Sequence record: PZ452584.1
Source: a phage
Length of the DNA: 64,000 bases
Direction: 5' to 3' (one strand)
Shown: in pieces, positions 11,210 through 55,900 of the stretch
Position numbering within the stretch: the first letter of the stretch is position 1
How the letters are laid out: every line of letters starts with the position of its first letter
Notes under the pieces: model-generated
Told to the model about the DNA's origin: nothing
The model's database searches: none
Seen by the model: the letters and a program-made list of their open reading frames with translations, nothing else
Made by a program: the position numbers and the translations under genes

Positions 11210-11225
11210 GGGACCTTTCGGTCCC
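11210..11225. terminator. Bidirectional hairpin between 24 and rnlB
   Basis: GGGACC-TTTC-GGTCCC flanked by A- and T-runs. Confidence 0.7.
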
Positions 11226-12816: not shown

Positions 12817-14523
12817 TTATGGATAGGTATAGATGATACCAGTTTCTAAAGCAGTTTTATGAATGATGTATCCATTACGCGATTCTTGAACATCAACTTC
12901 TGGATAGTCTTTCATCATCTTCTGAAGCGTATAACGATGCAGGTAGTATTTACTATCTGGATCTTCAGTTTTCCAATCTTTACCTTCTTCAGTCATTTTT
13001 TGGATTTCATCCATAACCCACCAACCGCACCAGATGTAAGCTGAAGTACGATGTGGAAGAGGATGGACATAAGGTAATTCACCTTCTGGTTCCGGAGCAA
13101 CTTTATCAGTCACTTGAACTTGACCTTCTGCTGTAATAGTTTTGCTATCATAGTCATCTGCAGTAACGACGGCAGTCACTTCAATAGTTTGACTTCCAAC
13201 AGATGAAGTATCAACGGTATATACATTAGTTGATCCTTCTACTGGAGAAGAATCTTTCTTCCATGAATAAGTAATTTGTGCCGGTTCGGGTGCACCAGTA
13301 ACATTAGCTGTAAATGTAGCCGAAGCATCTTGTTGAACGTTAATAGAAGGAGGAGTCAATGTAACCTGTGGATTCATTGTCTTCTTATTAACCGTTAATG
13401 ATACTTCATTAGAAGTAACTGTTTTTGCGTCATAATCCGTTGCTGTTACTTGGGCTACGCATTTAATTCTTTTTACTCCAACTGCAGTAGGAGTATAGCT
13501 AAATGTAGCGGAAGTTGCTTCACTAATTTGTGAATCATCTACATACCACTGATACGTAGCAGATGCTCCATCAGGTTGAGAAGCTAAAGCGGCGGTAAAT
13601 TCAACAGCTGTTCCAATTACTCCGGCAACAGGATTAGCAGGAGTTACAGCTAAGGTGGTCGTTTGTGTTTTCTTGTTAACAGTCAAAGATACTTCATTCG
13701 AAGTAACTTCCTTTTCATTGTAATTTTCTGCAGTTACTTGGGCTACGCATTTAATTCTTTTTACTCCACTTGTAGTTGGAGTGTAATTGAACGTAGCATT
13801 AGTTTCTCCAATAACTTGAGAACTGTCAACATACCATTTATATGTAGCAGACGCTCCAACGGGTCGAGAAGCTAAGGCAGCAGTAAATTGAACTGGGGTT
13901 CCAATTACTGCTGCTGGAGGACTATCAGGAGTTACTGCCAAAGTAGTTGTCTGCTCCTTTTTATTAACAGTCAGTGATACTTCATTAGAAGTAACGCTTA
14001 GTGCATCATAATCTGTCGCAGTTACTTGAGCCACACACTTAATTTTTTTAACTCCGCTTGTGGCAGGAGTGTAATTGAATGTAGCGCTAGTTGCTTCGTC
14101 CACAGGAGAACCGTCAACGTACCACTGGTATGTGGCGTTTGCACCAGATGGCTGCGAAGCTAAAGCGGCTGTAAATTGAACAGCTGTTCCGATTACTCCA
14201 GCGTCAGGGCTATTAGGAGTTACAGCTAAGGTGGTCGTTTGTGTCTTATTTTGAACTGTGATAGTTGTAGAAGCTTCTGCTGTTTCAGCTTCAGCTTCTG
14301 GAACTGTATTTGTTGCAACTACTTTAATAGTTTTTTGTCCAGCAGGCCCCTTTAATACATAATTAAAAGTTGCTTCAGCTCCATCTTGTGGAACATTATC
14401 TACGCTCCAAGCATAGGTAATAGTTCCACCTTCAGTTTGACCACTGGGTGCAGCAGTAAACTGCTTGGTTTCATCAATAACCCCTGTAGGTGTTTTAGGA
14501 GTTATATCAACTGTAAAAGTCAT
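12817..14523 (-). CDS. hoc: Hoc, highly immunogenic outer capsid protein with five Ig-like repeats
   Basis: 568 aa; N- and C-terminal regions match T4 Hoc; three near-identical ~96-aa Ig-like repeats visible. Confidence 0.92.
   Translation of the reverse strand: MTFTVDITPKTPTGVIDETKQFTAAPSGQTEGGTITYAWSVDNVPQDGAEATFNYVLKGPAGQKTIKVVATNTVPEAEAETAEASTTITVQNKTQTTTLAVTPNSPDAGVIGTAVQFTAALASQPSGANATYQWYVDGSPVDEATSATFNYTPATSGVKKIKCVAQVTATDYDALSVTSNEVSLTVNKKEQTTTLAVTPDSPPAAVIGTPVQFTAALASRPVGASATYKWYVDSSQVIGETNATFNYTPTTSGVKRIKCVAQVTAENYNEKEVTSNEVSLTVNKKTQTTTLAVTPANPVAGVIGTAVEFTAALASQPDGASATYQWYVDDSQISEATSATFSYTPTAVGVKRIKCVAQVTATDYDAKTVTSNEVSLTVNKKTMNPQVTLTPPSINVQQDASATFTANVTGAPEPAQITYSWKKDSSPVEGSTNVYTVDTSSVGSQTIEVTAVVTADDYDSKTITAEGQVQVTDKVAPEPEGELPYVHPLPHRTSAYIWCGWWVMDEIQKMTEEGKDWKTEDPDSKYYLHRYTLQKMMKDYPEVDVQESRNGYIIHKTALETGIIYTYP
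13375..14238 (-). repeat. Three tandem ~288-bp repeats encoding Ig-like domains within hoc
   Basis: DNA repeat units visibly similar; protein units begin TTTLAVTP. Confidence 0.85.
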
Positions 14524-24336: not shown

Positions 24337-25301
24337 TGTATTCTTTAGAGGAATTTAATAATCAAGCAATAAACGCAGATTTCCAACGTAATAATATGTT
24401 TAGCTGCGTTTTTGCGACAACTCCATCAACTAAAAGCTCTTCGTTGATAAGTTCAATTAGCAACTTTTCTTATAATAACTTGGGTCTAAATTCAGATTGG
24501 TTAGGATTGACTCAAGGCGATATTAATCAGGGAATTACCACGCTAATTACAGCTGGCACACAAAAACTGATAAGAAAATCAGGGGTTAGTAAATATCTTA
24601 TTGGTGCCATGAGTCAACGTACAGTTCAAAGTTTATTGGGCTCATTTACAGTTGGTACATATTTAATTGACTTCTTTAATATGGCATATAACTCATCTGG
24701 ATTGATGATATATTCTGTAAAAATGCCAGAGAATAGATTATCCTATGAAACTGACTGGAACTATAATTCCCCTAATATTCGTATAACTGGGAGAGAATTA
24801 GACCCTTTGGTTATTTCATTTAGGATGGATTCAGAAGCTTGTAACTATCGTGCAATGCAAGACTGGGTTAATGCTGTTCAAGACCCAGTAACTGGATTAC
24901 GTGCTTTGCCACAAGATGTCGAGGCAGATATTCAGGTTAATCTTCATTCTCGTAATGGATTACCTCATACTGCGGTGATGTTCACCGGATGCATTCCAAT
25001 ATCAGTGAGCGCTCCTGAGTTATCATATGATGGAGATAACCAAATAACTACATTTGATGTTACTTTTGCGTATAGAGTGATGCAGGCTGGAGCAGTTGAT
25101 AGGCAAGCTGCGCTTGAATGGCTTGAATCTGCTGCTATAAATGGTATTCAAAGCGTTCTCGGAAATAGTGGAGGTGTTACTGGACTATCTAATTCGCTTT
25201 CACGACTCAGTAGATTAGGGGGAACTGCAGGAAGCATTTCAAACATTAATACTATGACAGGAATTGTCAATTCGCAAAGTAAAATATTAGGAGCAATATA
25301 A
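24336..25301 (+). CDS. 54: Baseplate tail tube initiator gp54
   Basis: 321 aa; hairpin terminator at 25306. Confidence 0.93.
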   Translation: MYSLEEFNNQAINADFQRNNMFSCVFATTPSTKSSSLISSISNFSYNNLGLNSDWLGLTQGDINQGITTLITAGTQKLIRKSGVSKYLIGAMSQRTVQSLLGSFTVGTYLIDFFNMAYNSSGLMIYSVKMPENRLSYETDWNYNSPNIRITGRELDPLVISFRMDSEACNYRAMQDWVNAVQDPVTGLRALPQDVEADIQVNLHSRNGLPHTAVMFTGCIPISVSAPELSYDGDNQITTFDVTFAYRVMQAGAVDRQAALEWLESAAINGIQSVLGNSGGVTGLSNSLSRLSRLGGTAGSISNINTMTGIVNSQSKILGAI

Positions 25302-25305
25302 CAAC

Positions 25306-25323
25306 GGGGACCTTTCGGTCCCC
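25306..25323. terminator. Bidirectional hairpin between 54 and alt.-3
   Basis: GGGGACC-TTTC-GGTCCCC. Confidence 0.7.
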
Positions 25324-25329
25324 ATATTT

Positions 25330-25620
25330 TTATTTGCGGAATGAAATGAAAGCAGAAACTGAAGCAACTAAACTGTCTTCAATATAAACTTCAATTTTTA
25401 CCGGAGCTTCTGATTCAAATTTACCTGTTACTACACCTTGGAAAATACTTTCAGTCTGTTCTGGCTTTGAAAAATTTTCAGAAGGAAAAATTCCGAACTT
25501 TTTATCTGTTCCAAAAATTTTGATAAATTCATCGTAAACTGCTTCATTAAAAGCATTATCAGCAGGAATAACGCCTTCAACTACAAGTTCTTGACCTAAA
25601 AAGCGTAAAGAAGATTTCAT
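25330..25620 (-). CDS. Hypothetical protein (alt.-3 position) with early promoter
   Basis: 96 aa; GAGGA SD; early promoter cassette immediately upstream. Confidence 0.7.
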   Translation of the reverse strand: MKSSLRFLGQELVVEGVIPADNAFNEAVYDEFIKIFGTDKKFGIFPSENFSKPEQTESIFQGVVTGKFESEAPVKIEVYIEDSLVASVSAFISFRK

Positions 25621-25627
25621 TTTGTGT

Positions 25628-25681
25628 TCCTCATGTTATGTCAGTAAGACTACTATAACACAACACGAGGGACTTGTAAAC
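25628..25681 (-). repeat. 54-bp early promoter + leader cassette, copy 1
   Basis: Identical to 40285..40338. Confidence 0.9.
25652..25681 (-). promoter_or_regulatory. Early promoter (GTTTACA-17-TATAGT)
   Basis: T4 early consensus -35 GTTTAC with sigma70-like -10. Confidence 0.7.
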
Positions 25682-27738
25682 TACATTTTGAACTTTTTAG
25701 ACATTCCGTTGATGTTAACCAAAGAAGCCAAGATTTGAGAAACTTCGTTTTCCTCTTCTTTTGATTCTTCTACAAGGAATTGATTAAATCCAGCCATTGG
25801 GCGAACTTCACCAGTTTCCATTAGATGGTCGCCATCATATACTGATTCTTCTAATTGTTCAGAAGGAGGAACGATTGTACCTTCGATTAGATACTTGTTA
25901 TAAGCAGTTTCTTTCATAAAGTACGTGCTCACTTTATTAATCTTCAGTAAAATTCCACGTGGTAGAATAACTTCAGCTTCTGATGGAAATCCTGATAAAT
26001 GACCCGGAACGATAACTTTAATTCGCTCAGCTCCTTTAATTACCATACCCACGCTAGTTTCAGCATCTTCATTAGCATATGTAGAATGACTACCCATATG
26101 CATCAAATCTTCTGCATCAACAGAACCTTCTCCTTCGCCAGAAAATACTGCACCGGAATCATCTAGAGCCATATAGTTTTTACCATGCTCACCGAAGATA
26201 TTTGGTTTAAGCGATGTGGATACGAAGTTCTTGAAATAGAACATTTTGTTTTCAATGTTATGACGCAAAGTTTTAAAGGTAACTTCTTGTCCACGGTAAA
26301 GTGTAGTTCCTGGAGGAAGAACTGAACCTTTAGCGAATGCAGAATCCAACGTCTCGATGTGCTTAATAGCTCGTTCCATATATTCTTCACGGGTAGAATC
26401 TGGTTTACCCAAAAGGAACGAGTTCATTTCAACATATGAATCTGCACAATAATCTTCAATTACATCAGATTCAGCTTGAGTTAATCCTTTTGGAGTTACT
26501 TCGGTGCTTGCGTATTCATATGCCTGAGCGGCAGATTCATTAATCAATTTATAAATGCCATTCATGACAAATTGAATAATAGCTGTCTTTTCATCTGGCG
26601 TAGCTTTAGAACCTTTAACTAAATCATTGATAATTTTCTTAATAACATCAAAGCTATTAGAAATATTAATGTCAGCAAGATCGCTTAAAATTTTATCAGT
26701 TTTATAATCAAAGAATTCTTTATTCTTTAAATATTCTTGAGAACCTTGATATGTTATATCGCTCTGCAACTTGATAGATGGATCACGTAAACGCGCATGG
26801 GCTAATGCAATATGATTTCGGAAGTTTTCTAGTTCATAATCGCTAGATTTAAAACGAGAAGCACTCCTCATACCACCGATAGCTCCTTTGCTGAAGTTTG
26901 AACCAATCTGAATAACGCCAGAGTTCATTGGTCCTTCTGCTTTATATACCGGAACTTTAGATTCAAACTCTTGATATTTCTTAGCAGCGAAGCTATCACC
27001 CTGAAGTGAAGCATCAACAGTAGAATATTGAGCTTGTGCTGCTAATCGACGACTAATTTTAGTTTTCTGAATAACAGCTTGGTCCGTGCGCTTATCATTT
27101 TCTAAAGCAATAGAAGCAGCAACAGCGACAGCTTTAGGAACAGCATTACCTGTTTTAACGTCTACATAAACATCACCAACCTTTGATTCAACTTTTGTGA
27201 ATAACTCAGTTGAAATAGGAGGTACACCTGGAATGTCTTCTAAATTGGCATTTTTACGGTAAACCATAATATATGCATACTTTTTATCATAGTCCCAGAT
27301 TTCCTTTAAAAGAACATATCGACCTGCTCCTTTAGTACGTACTAAACGGTCAGCAATAACTTGCATTTGACGAGCAGCGCCATTTGTTTTACTTTTTAGT
27401 ACGCGGAATAGGCATGCGTCAATTTTATACTGTTTCATTGTTTGAAGAGCAGTATCAAAAACAGCATTAATGACGCCAATTGGATTTCCACCCAAGTTTC
27501 TAAGCTTAACCAGCGATAATTTCTCGTTGACACCTATCATTACGATATGCATCATTTTATCGCCTGGCTTAACGTTTTTATTCGTATCACCACCAGAGGT
27601 GTATGTACAAAATCTAAATCCAGGAAGCACGCTTTCTTCGCCGGCTTGAATAGCAAAAATTTGTGGTATTTTATGCTTAGGATTTAAGTTAACAACCGGC
27701 GCCGAAGCGCCGTCAAATAATTCTGTAATAAGTTCCAT
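25681..27738 (-). CDS. Alt-like ADP-ribosyltransferase paralogue (full length)
   Basis: 685 aa; N-terminal ~200 aa near-identical to Alt; Arg / STS / EAE motifs retained. Confidence 0.88.
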   Translation of the reverse strand: MELITELFDGASAPVVNLNPKHKIPQIFAIQAGEESVLPGFRFCTYTSGGDTNKNVKPGDKMMHIVMIGVNEKLSLVKLRNLGGNPIGVINAVFDTALQTMKQYKIDACLFRVLKSKTNGAARQMQVIADRLVRTKGAGRYVLLKEIWDYDKKYAYIMVYRKNANLEDIPGVPPISTELFTKVESKVGDVYVDVKTGNAVPKAVAVAASIALENDKRTDQAVIQKTKISRRLAAQAQYSTVDASLQGDSFAAKKYQEFESKVPVYKAEGPMNSGVIQIGSNFSKGAIGGMRSASRFKSSDYELENFRNHIALAHARLRDPSIKLQSDITYQGSQEYLKNKEFFDYKTDKILSDLADINISNSFDVIKKIINDLVKGSKATPDEKTAIIQFVMNGIYKLINESAAQAYEYASTEVTPKGLTQAESDVIEDYCADSYVEMNSFLLGKPDSTREEYMERAIKHIETLDSAFAKGSVLPPGTTLYRGQEVTFKTLRHNIENKMFYFKNFVSTSLKPNIFGEHGKNYMALDDSGAVFSGEGEGSVDAEDLMHMGSHSTYANEDAETSVGMVIKGAERIKVIVPGHLSGFPSEAEVILPRGILLKINKVSTYFMKETAYNKYLIEGTIVPPSEQLEESVYDGDHLMETGEVRPMAGFNQFLVEESKEEENEVSQILASLVNINGMSKKFKM

Positions 27739-27741
27739 GAT

Positions 27742-29835
27742 TTATCCTTGAACGAACTTGTAAGGCATGTTTGTAATATCTATGCAAGACGCAATAATTC
27801 CAAGAGATGATTCTACTTTCTGTTTAACATTTGATGAAACAAATGATGCAAAGTCAACTCTGTCTTCTACTTCAATATCACCTGTCATTGCAACTACTTC
27901 GCCGGTTTCCATTAGACGGTCGCCGTCATAAATTACCGATTCGGTGAGTTCTTCCGTAGTCATAACTTCAGCTTGAATGAGTTTTGTATTATTAGATGTT
28001 GTTCCGTCATTATTAGAAGCATCAGTTATTTTATTAACTTTGACCATCAATCCGCGCGGTAGAATAACTTCAGCTTCTGTTGCTATTCCGAGACTTCCTG
28101 GATATACAACATTAACTTTATGAGCTCCATCAATTGCCCATCCTATTTGAACTTTAACGTATTCAGGATTTTCTTTATACGCTCTTATTTCGTTTGGATT
28201 AATAGTTATTCCTTCTTCATTTTTATCAACTGTCAATTCATTACGAGCTTCTGGTTCTAAAAGACCAATACCAGCATGTGTAATTCCAAAACGTCCAAAA
28301 ATGATAGGAGTTAAAGAAGTAGATACAAAATTTCTGAAATAGAACACTTTATTTTTAACTAGTGCTTCGTATATAGGAGCAGTCATACTTTGAGCACGAT
28401 AAACTGTGATGCCTTCCGGTATGCGGTCACCATTTTCAAAAGCTGAATCTAAGTTATTTATAGCAGATTCAATTTCTTTTTCACTCATTACATCATATCG
28501 TTCTGGATTGTAACGACCTAAAAGAAGATTATTGATGTCTGTATATCCTGAACCACAATACTCTCTAATGCCGCGCTTTTGTGATGGAGTATATTTAGAA
28601 CCATCACGGGCAATAGTAATATCAATCATTGGACCTGCACCAATTCCGGAAAAACTATAAATCATTCGTTTGAGGAATTTAGTTTTTGCCGCATTCCAGG
28701 CATTTTTAGTTATTTCTCCCCAGACTTCATCTGACTGCCCTTTACGAGTTTTATTATGTTTATCAAGCCAATTATCTTTGTATTCTTCAAAGAATTTATT
28801 AACAGCTGCTGCGTATTTCTCTAAACATTTTATTGAAGTAGTTGGTTCATTTTTGATTGCGTTAAAAATTACATCTTTAATTTTTTCTGAAACTTCATCA
28901 ACCTCACTTTTTGAAAAGAATTTATAGTCATAGTGAAGTTCATTCGCAGTTCCTTCGGCAATAATTTTTGCTGCCTTAGTTTTAGAAGCTAATGAATTAA
29001 TTCCAAGCTTCATTTCTTCTGCTTCGGGAATTAAAGGAGCGGTAGCAGGTTTATTGAAATTAGCTGCGGTAGATTCATACTTCTGGAATAATTCACTTTC
29101 AAATCTAGAAGATTCCAATGATTGACTTTGCGCAATTGCTCTACGGGAAATTTTAACTTTAACGATTACAGCTTGGTCAGAACGTTTATCATTTTCTTGT
29201 GCAATAGATGCTGCAATTGCCTCATTTTTAGTTACTTGAGCCCCAGTATCTTTATTGATATAAACATCACCGACCTTCGATTCAACTTTAGTAAAGAGCT
29301 CGGTACTAATTTCCGGAACTCCTGGAATGTCTTCTAGTGATGCATTTTTGCGATGTATAAGAATATATGCATACTTTTTATCATAATCCCAGAGTTCCTT
29401 AAGAAGGACGTATCTGCCACCTGAACGACTACGGATAAGTCTATCAGCAATAACTTGAATTTGTCGAGCTTGACCAGCGGTTTTAGACTTAAGAATACGG
29501 AGCATACAGGCATCAATTTTATACTGACGCATAGTTTGCATTGCAACAGTAAAAACTGAATTGATATAATTAATTGGGCTTGGACCAAGACCTTTCAATT
29601 TAGCAATTGAACCTTTAGCAGTTAATGTAAAAGGAACAATATGCATCATTTTATCGCCCATTTTTAAATCGCGATTAGTATCACCTCCAGATGTATAGGT
29701 ACATAAACGAAAGCCTGGTTGTTCAATTGCATCATCAACATGAACTGAAAAAATTTGTGGTATTTTCTTCTTTGGATTTAAGTTTGTAATCGGAAGAGTA
29801 GTATCTTCGTCAAATAATTCTGTAATGAGTTCCAT
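27742..29835 (-). CDS. alt: Alt ADP-ribosyltransferase (capsid-packaged, modifies host RNA polymerase)
   Basis: 697 aa from ATG 29835; N-terminus MELITELFDEDTTLPITNLNPKK; R-STS-EAE motifs; minus-strand late promoter at 29859. Confidence 0.93.
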   Translation of the reverse strand: MELITELFDEDTTLPITNLNPKKKIPQIFSVHVDDAIEQPGFRLCTYTSGGDTNRDLKMGDKMMHIVPFTLTAKGSIAKLKGLGPSPINYINSVFTVAMQTMRQYKIDACMLRILKSKTAGQARQIQVIADRLIRSRSGGRYVLLKELWDYDKKYAYILIHRKNASLEDIPGVPEISTELFTKVESKVGDVYINKDTGAQVTKNEAIAASIAQENDKRSDQAVIVKVKISRRAIAQSQSLESSRFESELFQKYESTAANFNKPATAPLIPEAEEMKLGINSLASKTKAAKIIAEGTANELHYDYKFFSKSEVDEVSEKIKDVIFNAIKNEPTTSIKCLEKYAAAVNKFFEEYKDNWLDKHNKTRKGQSDEVWGEITKNAWNAAKTKFLKRMIYSFSGIGAGPMIDITIARDGSKYTPSQKRGIREYCGSGYTDINNLLLGRYNPERYDVMSEKEIESAINNLDSAFENGDRIPEGITVYRAQSMTAPIYEALVKNKVFYFRNFVSTSLTPIIFGRFGITHAGIGLLEPEARNELTVDKNEEGITINPNEIRAYKENPEYVKVQIGWAIDGAHKVNVVYPGSLGIATEAEVILPRGLMVKVNKITDASNNDGTTSNNTKLIQAEVMTTEELTESVIYDGDRLMETGEVVAMTGDIEVEDRVDFASFVSSNVKQKVESSLGIIASCIDITNMPYKFVQG

Positions 29836-29858
29836 CATATCCTCTCTAGTGTTTATTC

Positions 29859-29866
29859 TATTTATA
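29859..29866 (-). promoter_or_regulatory. Late promoter TATAAATA for alt
   Basis: Minus-strand motif 25 nt upstream of alt ATG. Confidence 0.7.
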
Positions 29867-33489: not shown

Positions 33490-33776
33490 TAGAACCTCAT
33501 CTGAAAACCATGTGATTTAACATTACCGCCATTAATATCAGAACTATTAATTTCACGTGCAATTGAGGGATCAATGTCAATTTCGCCATTAAGTTTAATG
33601 ATAGACAAAGTATCACGCCCATTTACTGTGCGGAACTCTAAAGGACAAACTACATCAACGTAGTTTTTAATCGATTCACTGGTAGGCTGCAAATGAGCAG
33701 GAAGGTCTTTAGGCGCCTTTGAGAAAACTACTTCACAGAAATTTTTGCGGGTGTCAAAATAAGTAGTCATAAACAT
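33489..33776 (-). CDS. Hypothetical protein (30.6 position)
   Basis: Start trimmed to ATG 33776 (GAGGA 7 nt upstream); the 189-aa track version runs through a hairpin, promoter and terminator. Confidence 0.6.
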   Translation of the reverse strand: MFMTTYFDTRKNFCEVVFSKAPKDLPAHLQPTSESIKNYVDVVCPLEFRTVNGRDTLSIIKLNGEIDIDPSIAREINSSDINGGNVKSHGFQMRF

Positions 33777-33829
33777 AACATTTTCCTCAGTAAAGGGCCG
33801 AAGCCCTTTTCTTTTGTTTGTGTAAGATA

Positions 33830-33859
33830 ATACTATCACAAAGGAACCGTACTGTAAAC
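33830..33859 (-). promoter_or_regulatory. Early promoter candidate (GTTTACA-17-TAGTAT)
   Basis: Motif between a terminator hairpin and the 30.6 leader. Confidence 0.5.
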
Positions 33860-33889
33860 AACTTTGTGCAATCTTTGGAAAATAAAAAA

Positions 33890-33907
33890 GGACTCCCGAA
33901 GGAGTCC
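33890..33907 (-). terminator. Intrinsic terminator after 30.7
   Basis: GGACTCC-TTCG-GGAGTCC plus U6 on minus strand. Confidence 0.7.
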
Positions 33908-33912
33908 TCAAC

Positions 33913-34089
33913 TTATGCTTTCTGCTTACCAAAACGAGAAGCATCATCTCGAAGAACCGCACGTGCTCGGCGCATGATCTTCTCAACAGTTTGATTGATA
34001 CGAGAGTTCGACCCACGCTTGTAACCAGCGCGTTTAGAATCACCAACTTTCTTTTCAACTGCTTTCTTTGCTTTAGCTTGTTTTGCCAT
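33913..34089 (-). CDS. Small lysine/arginine-rich protein (30.7 position)
   Basis: 58 aa from ATG 34089; followed by UUCG hairpin plus U-tract. Confidence 0.55.
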   Translation of the reverse strand: MAKQAKAKKAVEKKVGDSKRAGYKRGSNSRINQTVEKIMRRARAVLRDDASRFGKQKA

Positions 34090-36737: not shown

Positions 36738-36973
36738 AGTACGCCATACACCCTTTGTGCTTCAACTAATCCATCAAAATCCAGTTTAAGATGCGATATT
36801 TGATCGCCATCACCTGGATTCACAATTACTAATACTGAACGAGGAGTTTCGGTAATAACACGAACCGATGTTTCAGGAAATCGTTCAGAAACCTTATTTA
36901 CTAATTCCTGTGCAAATAGTTTAACTTTTTCTTGGAATTCTTTAACAGTAATTGGTTTTTCACTTAGCAGCAT
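36734..36973 (-). CDS. Hypothetical protein (cd.2 position)
   Basis: 79 aa; early promoter candidate upstream. Confidence 0.6.
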   Translation of the reverse strand: MLLSEKPITVKEFQEKVKLFAQELVNKVSERFPETSVRVITETPRSVLVIVNPGDGDQISHLKLDFDGLVEAQRVYGVL

Positions 36974-37002
36974 TTTGTTTTCCTCATTTGTTTGGTAGAG
37001 CT

Positions 37003-37032
37003 ATAATATCACAACTCTACCGTAAAGTAAAC
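37003..37032 (-). promoter_or_regulatory. Early promoter candidate for cd.2
   Basis: GTTTACT-17-TATTAT; -10 lies inside a 7-bp inverted repeat. Confidence 0.4.
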
Positions 37033-39433: not shown

Positions 39434-39783
39434 TTAGAAAGGTCCTGGATGTCTTCTGCGAACTTGTTGAAGGAGTTGTTGATTTGTTTTTCAACCAATC
39501 CTGGCTTATGAGCCACCACATCCGCCTTCTTTGCATCTTTGCGCAGTTTTTCATTTTCACGCTCAATAGCAGCAATTGCCTCACGATTTTTATTATTCAT
39601 CGCATCAATATAATTATACTGAATTCGCAAATTATCTAATGCTAAAGCGTTTTCATTGGCTGTTTTTGTAATTTCAGTAACTGATGTTTCTAATCTTTCT
39701 ACCTTATTTTTTAAAATAATAGATGTTCCACCCAATGCTATTACAATTAATAGTAAACCTGCTGTCGTATTACTTAATTGCAT
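39430..39783 (-). CDS. Inner-membrane spanin (N-terminal TM, coiled coil)
   Basis: 117 aa; hydrophobic N-terminus then coiled-coil-like sequence. Confidence 0.75.
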   Translation of the reverse strand: MQLSNTTAGLLLIVIALGGTSIILKNKVERLETSVTEITKTANENALALDNLRIQYNYIDAMNNKNREAIAAIERENEKLRKDAKKADVVAHKPGLVEKQINNSFNKFAEDIQDLSK

Positions 39784-40280
39784 AAAGTTTTAATAACCTC
39801 TATAATATCGTCTTGAGAAAGACCGTTAATTAAAATATGATGTTCAGCTGGAGATTTAGAAATTTTAAAGCATGCCTCAACATCTTCTGCCATATCCGAT
39901 GCACTACGATTTGGATTACTAATTCCAAGACGATGCTTTCCAGTCAAAGGATTAACGATGATATAGCATTTGCAGCTATTGATATGAACATTGGGCTGAG
40001 TCTGATTAATGAACACTTCGCAATCATACTTAGCGAGTTGATTTTCTAAAAAGACTTTCATCTCTTCAACCGCATCAGGAAGCATATCACGGGCTTGCTC
40101 AAGACGACGATTTCGATATTCTTTAATGGTCGTTTTCCGCTTGACTTGCTTAGCTAAATCTTTCTTAAGATCGGTGATATATCCAACTCGACGATTTCCT
40201 TTGAATACAGAAATCCCATCTGTAGTATCACCGTATGCTTCAACGACCATTTCAGTAGTAATAAGCTGCAAATCCATCAT
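39774..40280 (-). CDS. alc: Alc, host transcription termination factor
   Basis: 168 aa; position between spanins and rnlA; early promoter cassette upstream. Confidence 0.85.
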   Translation of the reverse strand: MMDLQLITTEMVVEAYGDTTDGISVFKGNRRVGYITDLKKDLAKQVKRKTTIKEYRNRRLEQARDMLPDAVEEMKVFLENQLAKYDCEVFINQTQPNVHINSCKCYIIVNPLTGKHRLGISNPNRSASDMAEDVEACFKISKSPAEHHILINGLSQDDIIEVIKTLCN

Positions 40281-40284
40281 AAAG

Positions 40285-40338
40285 TCCTCATGTTATGTCA
40301 GTAAGACTACTATAACACAACACGAGGGACTTGTAAAC
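40285..40338 (-). repeat. 54-bp early promoter + leader cassette, copy 2
   Basis: Identical to 25628..25681. Confidence 0.9.
40309..40338 (-). promoter_or_regulatory. Early promoter for alc (second copy of cassette)
   Basis: Identical to promoter at 25652..25681. Confidence 0.7.
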
Positions 40339-40341
40339 AGC

Positions 40342-41929
<1,588 letters not shown>

Positions 41930-41956
41930 AATAAAATGGGCCTTGCGGCCCACTCC

Positions 41957-48440: not shown

Positions 48441-48812
48441 TTACTGAATATTAAAAGTTGCTTTAATCAGTGCAATGACTTCTGCCGCATTTTTATGATT
48501 TACCTGCACATGAATGGTTTGGGTATCAATATCAGGAGCATCGCCATCAACTTCCAGGAAGTGACAGAATTCCCATTCAGCGAGTTCAAAGTACTCGTCA
48601 GCATTATCATAAACAGACTTCAGGATGGTGCCATCTTTCATTTCAACTTTTTCGACAAAATAATCACCGTCGATATAACACATGTCCAGGACTTTAAAGG
48701 AACTGCCATGTTGTTCCATAATCTTAATCATGCGCGAATTGTTATCAGGACTACCAGCGATGAATTGTTTTTTGGCAGCAGGGTCTAATACGTAAAATTT
48801 ACCAATTTCCAT
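48441..48812 (-). CDS. Hypothetical protein, paralogue of 48871..49251
   Basis: Start at ATG 48812 (GAGGA SD); early promoter at 48842-48871. Confidence 0.6.
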   Translation of the reverse strand: MEIGKFYVLDPAAKKQFIAGSPDNNSRMIKIMEQHGSSFKVLDMCYIDGDYFVEKVEMKDGTILKSVYDNADEYFELAEWEFCHFLEVDGDAPDIDTQTIHVQVNHKNAAEVIALIKATFNIQ

Positions 48813-48841
48813 TTTATTTTCCTCATGTAGTTGATAGGGTA

Positions 48842-48871
48842 ATAGTATCACACTACTACCCTACTGTAAAC
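48842..48871 (-). promoter_or_regulatory. Early promoter candidate (GTTTACA-17-TACTAT)
   Basis: Consensus-like elements 25 nt upstream of ORF start 48812. Confidence 0.55.
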
Positions 48872-49296: not shown

Positions 49297-49527
49297 TTAT
49301 TGTTCAATCAGTCCCATGTAAAATTCTGCGTCTTCAGAATCCATGCCATCACAATATTCATTAGCCATAAAGCGGGTAAGGTCTTCAAGAGGACCTTCAA
49401 TGACAATAGAAAAATTGCAATAATTGGGATCATCATGAATACTTGTGATACTAAGTTCAGGATAACGATTACGAATAATTTCTTCGATATATTCAAAATC
49501 AACGATGTCAATATCAACTTTAGCCAT
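49297..49527 (-). CDS. Hypothetical acidic protein
   Basis: Start at MAKVDIDIV with GAGGA SD; early promoter 49571-49600. Confidence 0.55.
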
Positions 49528-49570
49528 ATTATTTTCCTCTTTAATCATCAGCAGTATTGCCGATAGTTGT

Positions 49571-49600
49571 ATAGTACCATGGAAGAACAGGGATGTAAAC
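49571..49600 (-). promoter_or_regulatory. Early promoter candidate (GTTTACA-17-TACTAT)
   Basis: Consensus-like elements upstream of ORF 49297..49527. Confidence 0.55.
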
Positions 49601-52945: not shown

Positions 52946-55900
52946 ATGGCCGAGATTAAAAGAAAGTTCAGAGCAGAAGACGGTCTGGACGCAGGTGGTG
53001 ATAAAATAATCAACGTAGCTTTAGCTGATCGTGCCGTAGGAACTGACGGTGTTAACGTTGATTACTTAATTCAAGAAAACACAGTTCAACAATACGATCC
53101 AACTCGTGGATATTTAAAAGATTTTGTAATCATTTATGATAACCGCTTTTGGGCTGCTATAAATGATATTCCGAAACCAGCAGGAGCTTTTAATAGCGTA
53201 CGCTGGAGAGCATTACGTACTGATGCAAACTGGACAACTGTTTCATCAGGACCTTATCAATTAAAGTCAGGCGAATCAATTTCAGTTGATACTGCAGCCG
53301 GTAATGACATTACATTTACTTTACCATCTACCCCAATTGACGGTGATACTATCGTTCTCCAAGATATTGGAGGAAAACCTGGAGTTAATCAAGTTTTAAT
53401 TACAGCTCCGGTACAAAGCATTGTAAATTTTAGAGGTCAGCAAGTACGTTCAGTACTAATGACTCATCCAAAATCACAGATAGTTTTAATTTTTAGTAAT
53501 CGTCTGTGGCAAATGTATGTCGCTGATTATAGTAGAGAAGCTGTAGTTGTAACGCCTGCGAGTCTCTATCAGGCTCAATCAAACGATTTTATCGTACGTA
53601 GATTTACTTCTGCTGCACCAATTAATGTTAAACTTCCAAGATTTGCTAATCATGGCGATATTATTAATTTCGTTGATTTAGATAAATTAAATCCTCTTTA
53701 TCACACAATTGTTACTACATATGATGAAACAACTTCAGTACAAGAAGTTGGAACTCATTCCATTGAAGGTCGTACATCGATTGACGGTTTCTTGATGTTT
53801 GATGATAATGAGAAATTGTGGAGATTGTTTGACGGGGATAGTAAAGCGCGTTTACGCATTATAACGACTAATTCTAATATTCGTCCAAATGAAGAAGTTA
53901 TGGTATTTGGTGCGAATAACGGAACAGCTCAGACAATTGAACTTCAGCTTCCGACTGATATTTCTGTTGGTGATACTGTCAAAATTTCCATGAATTACAT
54001 GAGAAAAGGACAAACGGTTAAAATCAAAGCTGCAGGTGAAGATAAAATTGCTTCTTCAGTTCAATTGCTGCAATTCCCAAAACGCTCAGAATATCCACCT
54101 GAAGCTGAGTGGGTTACAGTTCAAGAATTAGTTTTTAACGGTGAAACTAATTATGTTCCAGTTTTGGAGCTTGCTTATATTGAAGATTCTGATGGAAAAT
54201 ATTGGGTTGTACAGCAAAACGTTCCAACTGTAGAAAGAGTAGATTCTTTAAATGATTCTACTAGAGCAAGATTAGGGGTAATTGCTTTAGCTACGCAAGC
54301 TCAAGCTAATGCTGATTTAGAAAATTCTCCACAAAAAGAATTGGCAATTACTCCAGAAACGTTAGCTAATCGTACTGCTACAGAAACTCGTAGAGGTATT
54401 GCAAGAATAGCAACTACTGCTCAAGTTAACCAGGATACTACATTCTCTTTTGCTGATGACCTTATCATTACTCCTAAAAAGCTGAATGAAAGAACGGCTA
54501 CTGAAACTCGTAGAGGTATTGCTGAAATTGCTACACAGCAAGAAACTAATACAGGAACCGATGATACTACAATCATTACTCCTAAAAAGCTTCAAGCTCG
54601 TCAAGGTTCTGAATCATTATCTGGTATTGTAACCTTTGTATCTACTGCAGGTGCTACTCCAGCTTCTAGCCGTGAATTAAATGGTACGAATGTTTATAAT
54701 AAAAACACTAATAATTTAGTTGTTTCGCCTAAAGCTTTGGATCAGTATAAAGCTACTCCAACGCAGCAAGGTGCAGTAATTTTAGCAGTTGAAAGTGAAG
54801 TAATTGCTGGACAAAGTCAGGAAGGATGGGCAAATGCTGTTGTAACGCCAGAAACGTTACATAAAAAGACATCAACTGATGCAAGAATTGGTTTAATTGA
54901 AATTGCTACACAAAGTGAAGTTAATACAGGAACTGACTATACACGTGCAGTCACTCCTAAAACTTTAAATGACCGTAGAGCAACTGAAAGTTTAAGTGGT
55001 ATAGCTGAAATTGCTACGCAAGTTGAATTCGACGCAGGCGTCGACGATACTCGTATCTCTACACCATTAAAAATTAAAACCAGATTTAATAGTACTGATC
55101 GTACTTCTGTTGTTGCTCTATCTGGATTAGTTGAATCAGGAACTCTCTGGGACCATTATACACTTAATATTCTTGAAGCAAATGAGACACAGCGTGGTAC
55201 ACTTCGTGTAGCTACACAGGTCGAAGCTGCTGCAGGAACACTAGATAATGTTTTAATAACTCCTAAAAAGCTTTTAGGTACTAAATCTACCGAATCGCAA
55301 GAAGGTGTTATTAAAGTTGCAACTCAGTCTGAAGCTGTGGCTGGAACGTCAGCAAATACTGCTATATCTCCAAAAAATTTAAAATGGATTGTGCAGAGTG
55401 AACCTACCTGGGCAGCTACTACTGCGATAAGAGGTTTTGTTAAAACTTCATCTGGTTCAATTACATTCGTTGGTAATGATACAGTCGGTTCTACTCAAGA
55501 TTTAGAACTGTATGAGAAAAATAGCTATGCAGTATCACCATATGAATTAAACCGTGTATTAGCAAATTATCTGCCGTTAAAAGCAAAAGCTGTAGATAGT
55601 AATTTATTGGATGGTCTAGATTCATCTCAGTTCATTCGTAGGGATATTGCACAGACGGTTAATGGTTCACTAACCTTAACCCAACAAACGAATCTGAGTG
55701 CCCCTCTTGTATCATCTAGTACTGGTGAATTTGGTGGTTCATTGGCCGCTAATAGAACATTTACCATCCGTAATACAGGAGCCCCGACCAGTATCGTTTT
55801 CGAAAAAGGTCCTGCATCTGGGGCAAATCCTGCACAGTCAATGAGTATTCGTGTATGGGGTAACCAATTTGGCGACGGTAGTGATACAACACGTTCTACT

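Follow-up and report, generated by a model that had tools for sequence, protein, structure and literature searches.

Two identical early-promoter cassettes upstream of alc and alt.-3 in a T4-type phage, and a candidate hairpin gate on their translation

Why should the same 54 bp stand, without a single difference, in front of two genes that lie far apart in one phage genome? We have addressed this question in a stretch of 64,000 nucleotides of phage record PZ452584.1 (the window), which comes from a Tequatrovirus of the T4/RB27/RB32 kind and is about 98% identical to many records. Read on the minus strand, the unit is GTTTACAAGTCCCTCGTGTTGTGTTATAGTAGTCTTACTGACATAACATGAGGA, and it is found at 25628-25681 and at 40285-40338 with 54 of 54 positions identical. 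The two copies and the genes around them are as follows.

25628..25681, minus strand: cassette copy 1, 54 bp, an exact repeat between the stop of the alt paralogue and alt.-3
25330..25620, minus strand: alt.-3, 96 aa, homologue of T4 Alt.-3, the gene served by copy 1
25681-27738, minus strand: full-length alt paralogue (ORF and annotation), directly upstream of copy 1
27742-29838, minus strand: alt (ORF and annotation), upstream of copy 1
40285..40338, minus strand: cassette copy 2, 54 bp, an exact repeat between the rnlA stop and alc
39774..40280, minus strand: alc, inhibitor of host transcription, the gene served by copy 2
40342..41466, minus strand: rnlA, RNA ligase 1, directly upstream of copy 2

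The promoter cassette and its two loci

A repeat search of the window lists both 54-bp copies as one family of 100% identity. When up to three mismatches are allowed, the 54-mer has two matches in the window, while none is expected (100 shuffles). The two copies are separated by 14.6 kb, which include DNA ligase and other core genes, and their flanks are unrelated on the 5' side (...aaaatgta against ...actaagct) as well as on the 3' side (acacaaaATG against ctttatgATG). The junctions with the neighbouring genes are tight. The G at 25681 opens copy 1 and at the same time closes the TAG stop of the alt-like ORF, and this copy ends 7 nt before the ATG of alt.-3 (25620). The TAA stop of rnlA lies 3 nt upstream of copy 2, whose end is followed after 4 or 7 nt by two ATGs of alc (40280 and 40277), the second being the start in the T4 annotation.

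The initial annotation had put forward the same 54 bp at two distant loci within unrelated flanks, and both statements are borne out, the latter on both sides of both loci. Its suggested search for further copies yields none besides these two in the window, even with three mismatches. The possibility it had raised of an assembly artefact can be dismissed, since the 54-mer is found at 999 places in 500 phage records, about two per genome, all of Tequatrovirus type and including T4 and T6.

Each copy carries an early promoter.

25652..25680, minus strand: copy 1 early promoter, with the -35 TTTACA at 25680-25675, a 17-nt spacer, TG at 25660-25659 and the -10 TATAGT at 25657-25652
40309..40337, minus strand: copy 2 early promoter, with the -35 TTTACA at 40337-40332, a 17-nt spacer and the -10 TATAGT at 40314-40309

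In cassette numbering, the -35 element occupies positions 2-7, the TG 22-23, the -10 element 25-30 and the SD GAGGA 50-54. A promoter scan gives the cassette 10 of 12 matches plus the TG, which places it among the best sites in the region, and these elements of a T4-type early (sigma70) promoter are present: a -35 GTTTAC(A/T), a spacer of 17 +/- 1 bp, a -10 of the form TAnnnT and a TGn. The anatomy given before, GTTTACA, a 17-nt spacer, TATAGT and a leader ending in GAGGA, is correct, the leader measuring 24 nt. The description as a cassette of early promoter, leader and SD is likewise sound, but it had overlooked the TG at -15/-14 and a stem-loop within the cassette. From the promoter geometry, the start site is predicted at cassette position 37, near 25645 in copy 1 and 40302 in copy 2; no T4-wide start-site map was found in the literature searched. 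Upstream of the -35, the alc copy has the A/T-rich aaaaattataaaaaattt at about -40 to -60, while the alt.-3 copy is only moderately A/T-rich. These putative UP-element regions consist in both cases of upstream coding sequence and lie outside the repeat.

The promoters themselves are textbook T4 features. With the T4 early promoters of the UP/-35/TGn/-10 class (Hinton 2010, PMC2988021) the cassette shares the GTTTACA -35, the 17-bp spacer, the extended -10 and, at the alc copy, the A/T-rich upstream region, and both T4 genes are early. On the other hand, its 54/54 identity runs through spacer and leader and goes far beyond the class consensus. This identity beyond the consensus reflects copying together with an added constraint on RNA structure.

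The genes served by the two copies have a common timing. In time-resolved transcriptome and proteome tables of T4, alc and alt.-3 are classed as early at the level of RNA as well as protein, alt, the neighbour upstream of alt.-3, is a late gene, and rnlA has early RNA but late protein (PMC9697503). The gene alt.-3 is non-essential, and C-terminal extension mutants escape the CmdTAC defence (PMC11618068). Two further signals frame the alt region.

25304..25325, both strands: bidirectional intrinsic terminator between alt.-3 and gene 54 (terminator scan)
29859..29866, minus strand: late promoter TATAAATA directly upstream of alt (motif), with a terminator hairpin before the promoter

The terminator closes the alt.-3 transcript. 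Between alt and alt.-3, the terminator scan finds no terminator-like site on the minus strand. As a late promoter thus stands before alt with no terminator up to copy 1, read-through into copy 1 is to be expected, and by this sequence arrangement the promoter at 29859..29866 would be the source of late read-through RNA across copy 1. Since alt.-3 is early while lying at the tail of a late operon, it needs an early promoter of its own, and the cassette supplies one. Upstream of rnlA there is a MotA-box-like TGCTTCCA, then 12 nt and TACTAT, which is a pattern match only; as a candidate middle promoter of rnlA it is missing from Hinton's table of mapped middle promoters and was set aside.

A predicted hairpin between spacer and SD

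We have folded the 54-mer as RNA. In the predicted structure, positions 12-25 pair with positions 40-53, and a 4-bp apical helix is added. This hairpin has -22 kcal/mol (z = -5.4), a stability that none of 200 shuffles attains, and with the native flanks it reaches -23.0 and -24.4 kcal/mol, the latter for copy 2.

25657..25670, minus strand: copy 1 hairpin 5' arm, inside the spacer plus the first -10 base, complementary to the SD
25629..25642, minus strand: copy 1 hairpin 3' arm, leader and SD GAGGA (25632-25628)
40314..40327, minus strand: copy 2 hairpin 5' arm, from the fold of the 54-mer
40286..40299, minus strand: copy 2 hairpin 3' arm, leader and SD (40289-40285)

In the predicted fold the GAGG of GAGGA is paired, and the -10 element and the predicted start site sit in the loop. 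An RNA that starts at the predicted +1 has hardly any structure, with -4.7 and -4.8 kcal/mol (z = -0.5 and +0.4). By partition-function estimates, exposure of the SD requires 0.9 kcal/mol at alc and 3.7 kcal/mol at alt.-3 when the RNA comes from the own promoter, and 7.0 kcal/mol at alc and about 11 kcal/mol at alt.-3 in read-through RNA. The read-through RNAs were modelled from 60-400 nt upstream, and the cost is the same whatever the upstream length. The covariance models of Rfam 15 give no match at either cassette, even at E <= 1. Elsewhere in the window there are sub-threshold Rfam matches to Atu_C8 (33874-33957) and STnc50 (25294-25372), which we take as chance.

We lean slightly towards a reading in which the cassette joins a promoter to a hairpin gate that hides the SD, so that only RNA from its own promoter would be translated. 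At the DNA level, the cassette would act as a strong sigma70-type T4 early promoter with the extended -10 TGt-TATAGT; at the RNA level, the anti-SD carried in the spacer (positions 12-25) would pair with leader and SD (40-53). A transcript from the cassette promoter would lack the 5' arm and leave the ribosome-binding site open, whereas a transcript from upstream would contain both arms and fold into the hairpin that hides this site. Such upstream RNA may come from the late alt promoter at copy 1 and from transcription of the rnlA region at copy 2. Synthesis of Alc and Alt.-3 would then be confined to RNA from the early promoter. To our knowledge, no harm from late synthesis of Alc or Alt.-3 has been described.

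The gate would be the mirror image of a classic T4 arrangement. The genes e, soc, 49 and I-TevI have an SD-hiding hairpin with a late promoter in its 5' arm, and long transcripts are predicted to be untranslatable while promoter-proximal ones are translatable (Uzan & Miller 2010, PMC3014915). By analogy, the cassette functionally most resembles this class, with an early promoter inside the hairpin. The common points are an SD within the 3' arm of a stable helix and an internal promoter whose transcript lacks the 5' arm, the latter following for the cassette by geometry from the predicted +1. The difference is one of timing: the internal promoter of the known genes is the late TATAAATA and the masked RNA is early or middle, whereas here the promoter is early and the masked RNA would be middle or late. 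No late promoter TATAAATA is present in or next to either cassette. The SD-hiding function has been demonstrated for e and I-TevI, while the cassette is known from its sequence and predicted fold. An early-promoter case of the SD-hiding hairpin does not appear in that review, and our literature search for early-promoter inverted repeats returned nothing relevant. We have dropped the reading of the cassette as a RegB target, because the cleavage motif GGAG (PMC3014915) is absent from it, the SD being GAGGA.

The initial annotation had instead likened the repeat to the promoter-early stem-loop (PeSL) cassettes of T4-type genomes. The likeness holds for composition. The PeSLs of RB49 and phi1 (Arbiol et al. 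2010, PMC2839356) resemble the cassette in combining a strong early promoter of the sigma70 type with a stem-loop that lies in or spans the -35/-10 region, and in having an SD at their 3' end. As in the PeSL definition, the cassette is intergenic, placed between the stop of one gene and the ATG of the next, and contains an early promoter and an SD; its stable stem-loop overlaps the promoter. The likeness fails for high copy number, for association with orphan ORFs and for cassette-bounded insertions and deletions. PeSLs number about 50 per genome and occupy hyperplastic regions with orphan ORFs, but the cassette is present twice, at syntenic sites that do not change, and one copy belongs to the conserved gene alc. 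Moreover, PeSL stems are usually short GGGG/CCCC stems that have been called terminators, whereas the cassette has a long stem between spacer and SD and no U-tract.

The PeSL comparison nevertheless leads to the main rival of SD gating, namely a PeSL-type attenuator or insulator: the hairpin would terminate or attenuate transcription from upstream, or stabilise the 3' end of the upstream message, each cassette would thereby insulate its gene at the level of transcription, and the pairing with the SD would be incidental. Stem-loops in or over early promoters of RB49 and phi1 cut reporter expression as strongly as rrnB T1 (PMC2839356). Hairpins free of SD contact are also found at other early promoters, at 48870 and 37031 in the window and in three of the alc lineages described below. 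However, the stem is followed by a U-tract neither in the two copies nor in other genera, the tails being A-rich initiation regions (in the window ACACAAAAUG and CUUUAUGAUG, both without a U-run), and the terminator scan calls neither cassette. The missing U-tract and the absent call rule against reading the hairpin as an intrinsic terminator. Together with the position of the SD in related phages, to which we come below, they make the insulator role rather unlikely in our view.

Conservation and covariation of the hairpin

If pairing with the SD matters, the spacer should follow the leader where the sequences have diverged. We have sampled the regions upstream of alc in 24 IMG/VR contigs and several GenBank phages, among which the synteny rnlA-alc ... 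alt-alt.-3-gene 54 is kept. Complementarity between spacer and leader, with quite different sequences, is present in 16 of the 18 alc lineages compared, and the same complementarity is found in three phages outside this set (Karamvirus AS6, Klebsiella Roth80 and LQ5). In most lineages the upstream stop abuts GTTTACA, and the spacer opens with TCCTC or TCTCC, continuing as the exact complement of leader and SD. Examples of the two arms upstream of alc, spacer first and leader second, are given here.

Lineage L010: tcctcattttgttg / caacaaaatgagga
Lineage L016, probably Proteus phiP4-3: acctctcattttt / gaaaatgagaggt
Lineage L025, probably Serratia CHI14: tcctcatttcgtt / aacgaaatgagga
Gelderlandvirus NP4: tctccgtttagtt / aactaaacggaga
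Karamvirus AS6: tctccatttgg / caaatggaga

In an arm-swap comparison, the mean pairing energy of a spacer is -18.3 kcal/mol with the leader of the same lineage and -10.1 kcal/mol with the leaders of other lineages, and in 16 of 18 lineages the cognate combination comes out as the best or second best. In addition, a covariance model built from seven non-Tequatrovirus sequences that carry the helix finds both copies of the window, at 33.9 and 32.9 bits. In the model alignment (fitted to the model, with some antisense matches and some at promoters of genes other than alc), 86.6% of the cells are paired, compared with 68.6% after shuffling (0 of 500 as high) and 36-50% with the partners slid, and double changes occur at 14 of 14 pairs. 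A set restricted to 13 distinct alc lineages has 93% of the cells paired, with compensatory changes at 11 of 14 pairs, while 1000 permutations of the right arm reach 83% at most. Within Tequatrovirus, the left-arm variants C11T, C15T and G16A keep or improve the pairing in the sense RNA, for example -25.7 kcal/mol in lineage L032. RNAalifold on a plain MAFFT alignment of the 18 alc leaders returned no consensus structure, because the arm positions shift by 1-3 nt between lineages.

The arrangement upstream of alc recurs in the majority of the Tevenvirinae lineages sampled, where the sequences differ and compensatory changes are numerous, and this indicates that it is under selection. From the sequences compared, the long SD-pairing arrangement at this place appears to be ancestral across the Tevenvirinae. 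This bears on a simpler view, that the cassette is merely a duplicated strong promoter with an SD, its identity due to recent copying and ordinary constraint and its hairpin functionless. T4 early promoters do have a long consensus from the -35 to the SD (PMC2988021), and with flanking genes about 98% identical among Tequatrovirus genomes, 54 conserved bases would be unremarkable. Yet the spacer, although unneeded for promoter recognition, covaries with the leader in those 16 of 18 lineages, with 11-14 compensatory pairs and all controls far lower. The covariation thus disfavours a functionless hairpin, which we consider improbable.

A further alternative is an inverted repeat that acts in DNA, as a hairpin or cruciform tuning the melting or strength of the promoter, or as a signal for recombination or replication. 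For the T4-type cassette the strands differ: the stem contains three G-U pairs, and it has -24.4 kcal/mol in the sense strand against -15.4 kcal/mol in the antisense strand. This weaker antisense stem points to pairing in RNA and not in DNA, as far as the modelled energies go. G-U pairs are mismatches in DNA and in the antisense strand, and the Tequatrovirus variants are C-to-T and G-to-A changes that preserve pairing in RNA only. The comparison of sense with antisense stability shows no asymmetry across the family (p = 0.98) and is informative only for the T4-type cassette, since most lineages have perfect Watson-Crick arms; outside Tequatrovirus, a DNA-level hairpin is therefore conceivable. 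Arbiol et al. have speculated on a protein that targets PeSL stems in recombination (PMC2839356), whereas the arm sequences here are wholly different between genera, which speaks against a sequence-specific protein site. Overall, we hold an action in DNA to be quite improbable. Loops of 14-20 nt are, besides, poor substrates for cruciform extrusion.

Returning to the insulator role, a further point is where the SD lies. Of the 16 alc lineages with the long hairpin, 13 have it inside the 3' arm, and immediately behind the -35 the 5' arm mostly opens with TCCTC or TCTCC. This consistent inclusion of the SD in the helix points to selection on SD pairing itself, as SD gating would have it. Masking of the SD is not universal. 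In L015, L019 and L026 the helix ends 2-5 nt before the SD, and in the Mosigvirus-like L017 and in L027 there is only a small hairpin inside the spacer upstream of alc. In Gaprivervirus phages like VR25, alc is preceded by an additional ORF and lacks a promoter of this kind, and Acinetobacter Acj9 and Aeromonas Aes012 are without the hairpin. In the window itself, several other early promoters show the same general layout with different sequence, and the spacer hairpins of those at 48870 (z = -3.4) and 37031 (z = -5.4) are unable to mask the SD, so promoter hairpins may share a more general function. Phage NP4 provides an independent example of the arrangement before another gene (L005:26481-26551).

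Considering all this, we regard the cassette as real and functional, a regulatory element that is ordinary for the most part but has a single interesting and testable peculiarity. Two points are new, namely the anti-SD spacer at alc, with its deep conservation and covariation, and the copying of this spacer to alt.-3; neither is described in the searchable literature. If the gating is true, the sequence alone would explain how alt.-3 can be early at the end of a late operon and be made only early, and the same would apply to Alc, the shut-off factor of host transcription. A classic T4 control mechanism would then have a second temporal direction, and the cassette would be a simple, portable 54-bp part restricting the expression of a gene to the promoter it carries. 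Spacers of promoters are commonly regarded as free sequence, yet they can hold RNA information that is under selection.

Origin of the two copies

As for how two loci came to hold the same unit, the pair itself is old. Two copies stand at the same two places in about 500 Tequatrovirus genomes, so the pair predates the radiation of Tequatrovirus. In T4 the copies likewise stand before alt.-3 and alc, with one base different in the alt.-3 copy. Outside Tequatrovirus, alt.-3 also has an early promoter that abuts the alt stop; in Mosigvirus, Gelderlandvirus and VR25 it is of the type with a small hairpin inside the spacer, and its leader ends in ...caacatgaggaa. Since other genera have an early promoter at both sites, the cassette should have overwritten a resident promoter, with no insertion.

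The alt.-3 copy is probably a Tequatrovirus-specific gene-conversion copy. In the ancestor of Tequatrovirus, an alc-type cassette would have overwritten the resident alt.-3 promoter by gene conversion, which may have started from short homologies, the GTTTACA and AACATGAGGA ends common to both sites. Since then, the copies would have stayed nearly identical through conversion from time to time and through selection acting on promoter, helix and SD. We have moderate confidence in the direction from alc to alt.-3, which we read solely from the ancestral architecture at each locus, the long SD-pairing helix being ancestral at alc. We find the chances evenly balanced for the broader picture, in which the enterobacterial T4-like phages (Tevenvirinae) have at alc a long-standing dual-use element whose spacer anti-SD ties translation to one promoter, extending a late-gene trick to early genes, and which is portable and was copied to alt.-3.

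Variation among relatives supports continued exchange. In 12 genomes inspected, the same derived alleles (G16A, T27C and G29A+G32A) are present at both loci in different phages. The double change G29A+G32A makes the -10 TATAAT; it is found exactly at the alt.-3 locus in 31 records and at the alc locus exactly only in PP01, G28 and KMB40, and PP01 and G28 carry this rare haplotype in both copies. Variants common to both loci imply that conversion still occurs.

These data divide the former suggestion of a mobile or recombination-spread module. Recombination is upheld by the derived variants that the two loci share, and mobility finds no support, the positions being fixed in about 500 genomes. 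A strict mobile element would insert at new sites, or carry genes between PeSL copies by way of mini-circles. Copies of PeSLs within a genome are alike and recombine, as in the cassette, and in RB49 and phi1 their recombination gives insertions, deletions and mini-circles (PMC2839356). For the cassette, by contrast, only gene conversion is seen, and no insertion or deletion bounded by it was found in the 500 records or in the 12 genomes inspected. That two copies keep to the same two sites, and that both sites already have an early promoter in other genera, argue likewise against mobility. Excision between the copies would in addition be lethal, because the 14.6 kb hold DNA ligase and other core genes, which are essential in T4. 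A third copy, the only one found, exists in phage G28 and might be taken as a sign of movement, but it belongs to a stretch of 351 bp at the rnlA-alc junction that is duplicated in tandem. The duplicated stretch takes in the final ~110 nt of rnlA, the cassette and ~175 nt from the start of alc, and its novel junction is in coding sequence of rnlA and alc, outside the cassette. We have rejected this third copy as evidence of mobility, since it stems from a plain tandem duplication, and regard a strict mobile element as highly improbable. It seems that near-identical promoter cassettes can arise through gene conversion between resident promoters, with no need for a mobile element.

Homogenisation is not constant, and the 54/54 identity is the common but not the universal state. 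In T4, T6, wV7, GBLB0003 and several metagenomic phages, the two copies differ by 1-6 nt.

Anti-SD spacers and structured early promoters

The Salmonella phage NP4 carries a second, independent cassette of this design (L005:26481-26551), in which the anti-SD spacer pairs with the ribosome-binding site (SD). Its arms, tcctccgttgtat and atacaacggaga, give a folding energy of -21.4 kcal/mol with z = -5.3. The gene lying downstream is a small early gene other than alc, and thus the anti-SD spacer design is not limited to alc.

In the window, four further early promoters (GTTTAC, 17 nt, TAnnnT) were observed on the minus strand, all of them with an adjoining upstream stop codon and with inverted repeats that begin in the spacer:

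Further early promoters with inverted repeats
48809-48870, minus strand: early-promoter hairpin, -18 kcal/mol, z = -3.4; the helix runs across the -10 element and ends 5-8 nt short of the SD
36970-37031, minus strand: early-promoter hairpin, -18 kcal/mol, z = -5.4; the helix runs across the -10 element and ends 5-8 nt short of the SD
49525-49600, minus strand: early-promoter hairpin, a weak helix extending to the SD, z = -1.0
33774-33859, minus strand: early-promoter leader containing a terminator-like GGGC...GCCC hairpin

A spacer with secondary structure seems to be typical of early promoters of this kind.

Sequence surroundings of the cassette copies

Between alt and alt.-3, the window encodes a second full-length alt paralogue of 685 aa (25681-27738), as do RB32, RB27 and T6. 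Of this paralogue, T4 has kept only the remnants alt.-1 and alt.-2 (L002:4066-4451). Since the N-terminal paralogue codons (YKIDACLLRVLKS) are fused straight to the final codons (KKFKM*) directly 5' of the T4 cassette, the sequence indicates that the T4 paralogue underwent an internal deletion, with the cassette left intact.

In phage vB_EcoM-G28 (NC_054916.1, about 137897-138248), we have observed a tandem duplication of 351 bp, which runs from the 3' end of rnlA through the cassette to ~175 nt into alc. This duplication accounts for a third cassette copy and for a shortened piece of alc joined to sequence that derives from rnlA, and the TATAATAA variant is present in all three cassette copies of this phage.

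At the initiation region of both window copies, a mini-ORF of 4-5 codons starts at the AUG within ...cAUGAGGA... (minus strand, 25620-25635 and 40277-40292) and terminates at a UGA that shares bases with the start codon (AUG) of alt.-3 (AUGAGGAACACAAAAUGA) or alc (AUGAGGACUUUAUGA). As AUGAGGA is repeated in many early-gene leaders of this phage and its relatives, it is probably part of an initiation-region consensus rather than a translated ORF.

The rnlA upstream region and other repeats

Immediately upstream of rnlA, a 144-aa ORF (41519-41953, minus strand) with a GIY-YIG-like motif (YVIYAI...) looks like a Seg-type homing endonuclease; no gene is shown at the matching position beside rnlA in T4. 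Also 5' of rnlA (41467-41520, minus strand), a MotA-box-like TGCTTCCA followed after 12 nt by TACTAT could be a candidate middle promoter; the mapped T4 middle promoters tabulated in the literature include none for rnlA.

An identical 16-nt terminator hairpin core, GGGACCTTTCGGTCCC (repeat family D14), occurs at two far-apart loci, 11210-11225 and 25307-25322, the latter being a bidirectional terminator 3' of alt.-3. This core is another short regulatory motif used more than once in the genome. Three 288-nt tandem repeats of about 76% identity (13381-14256) and several repeats of 29-68 nt (54347-55272) are presumably domain repeats inside structural genes, namely Hoc-like Ig domains and a tail-fibre gene.
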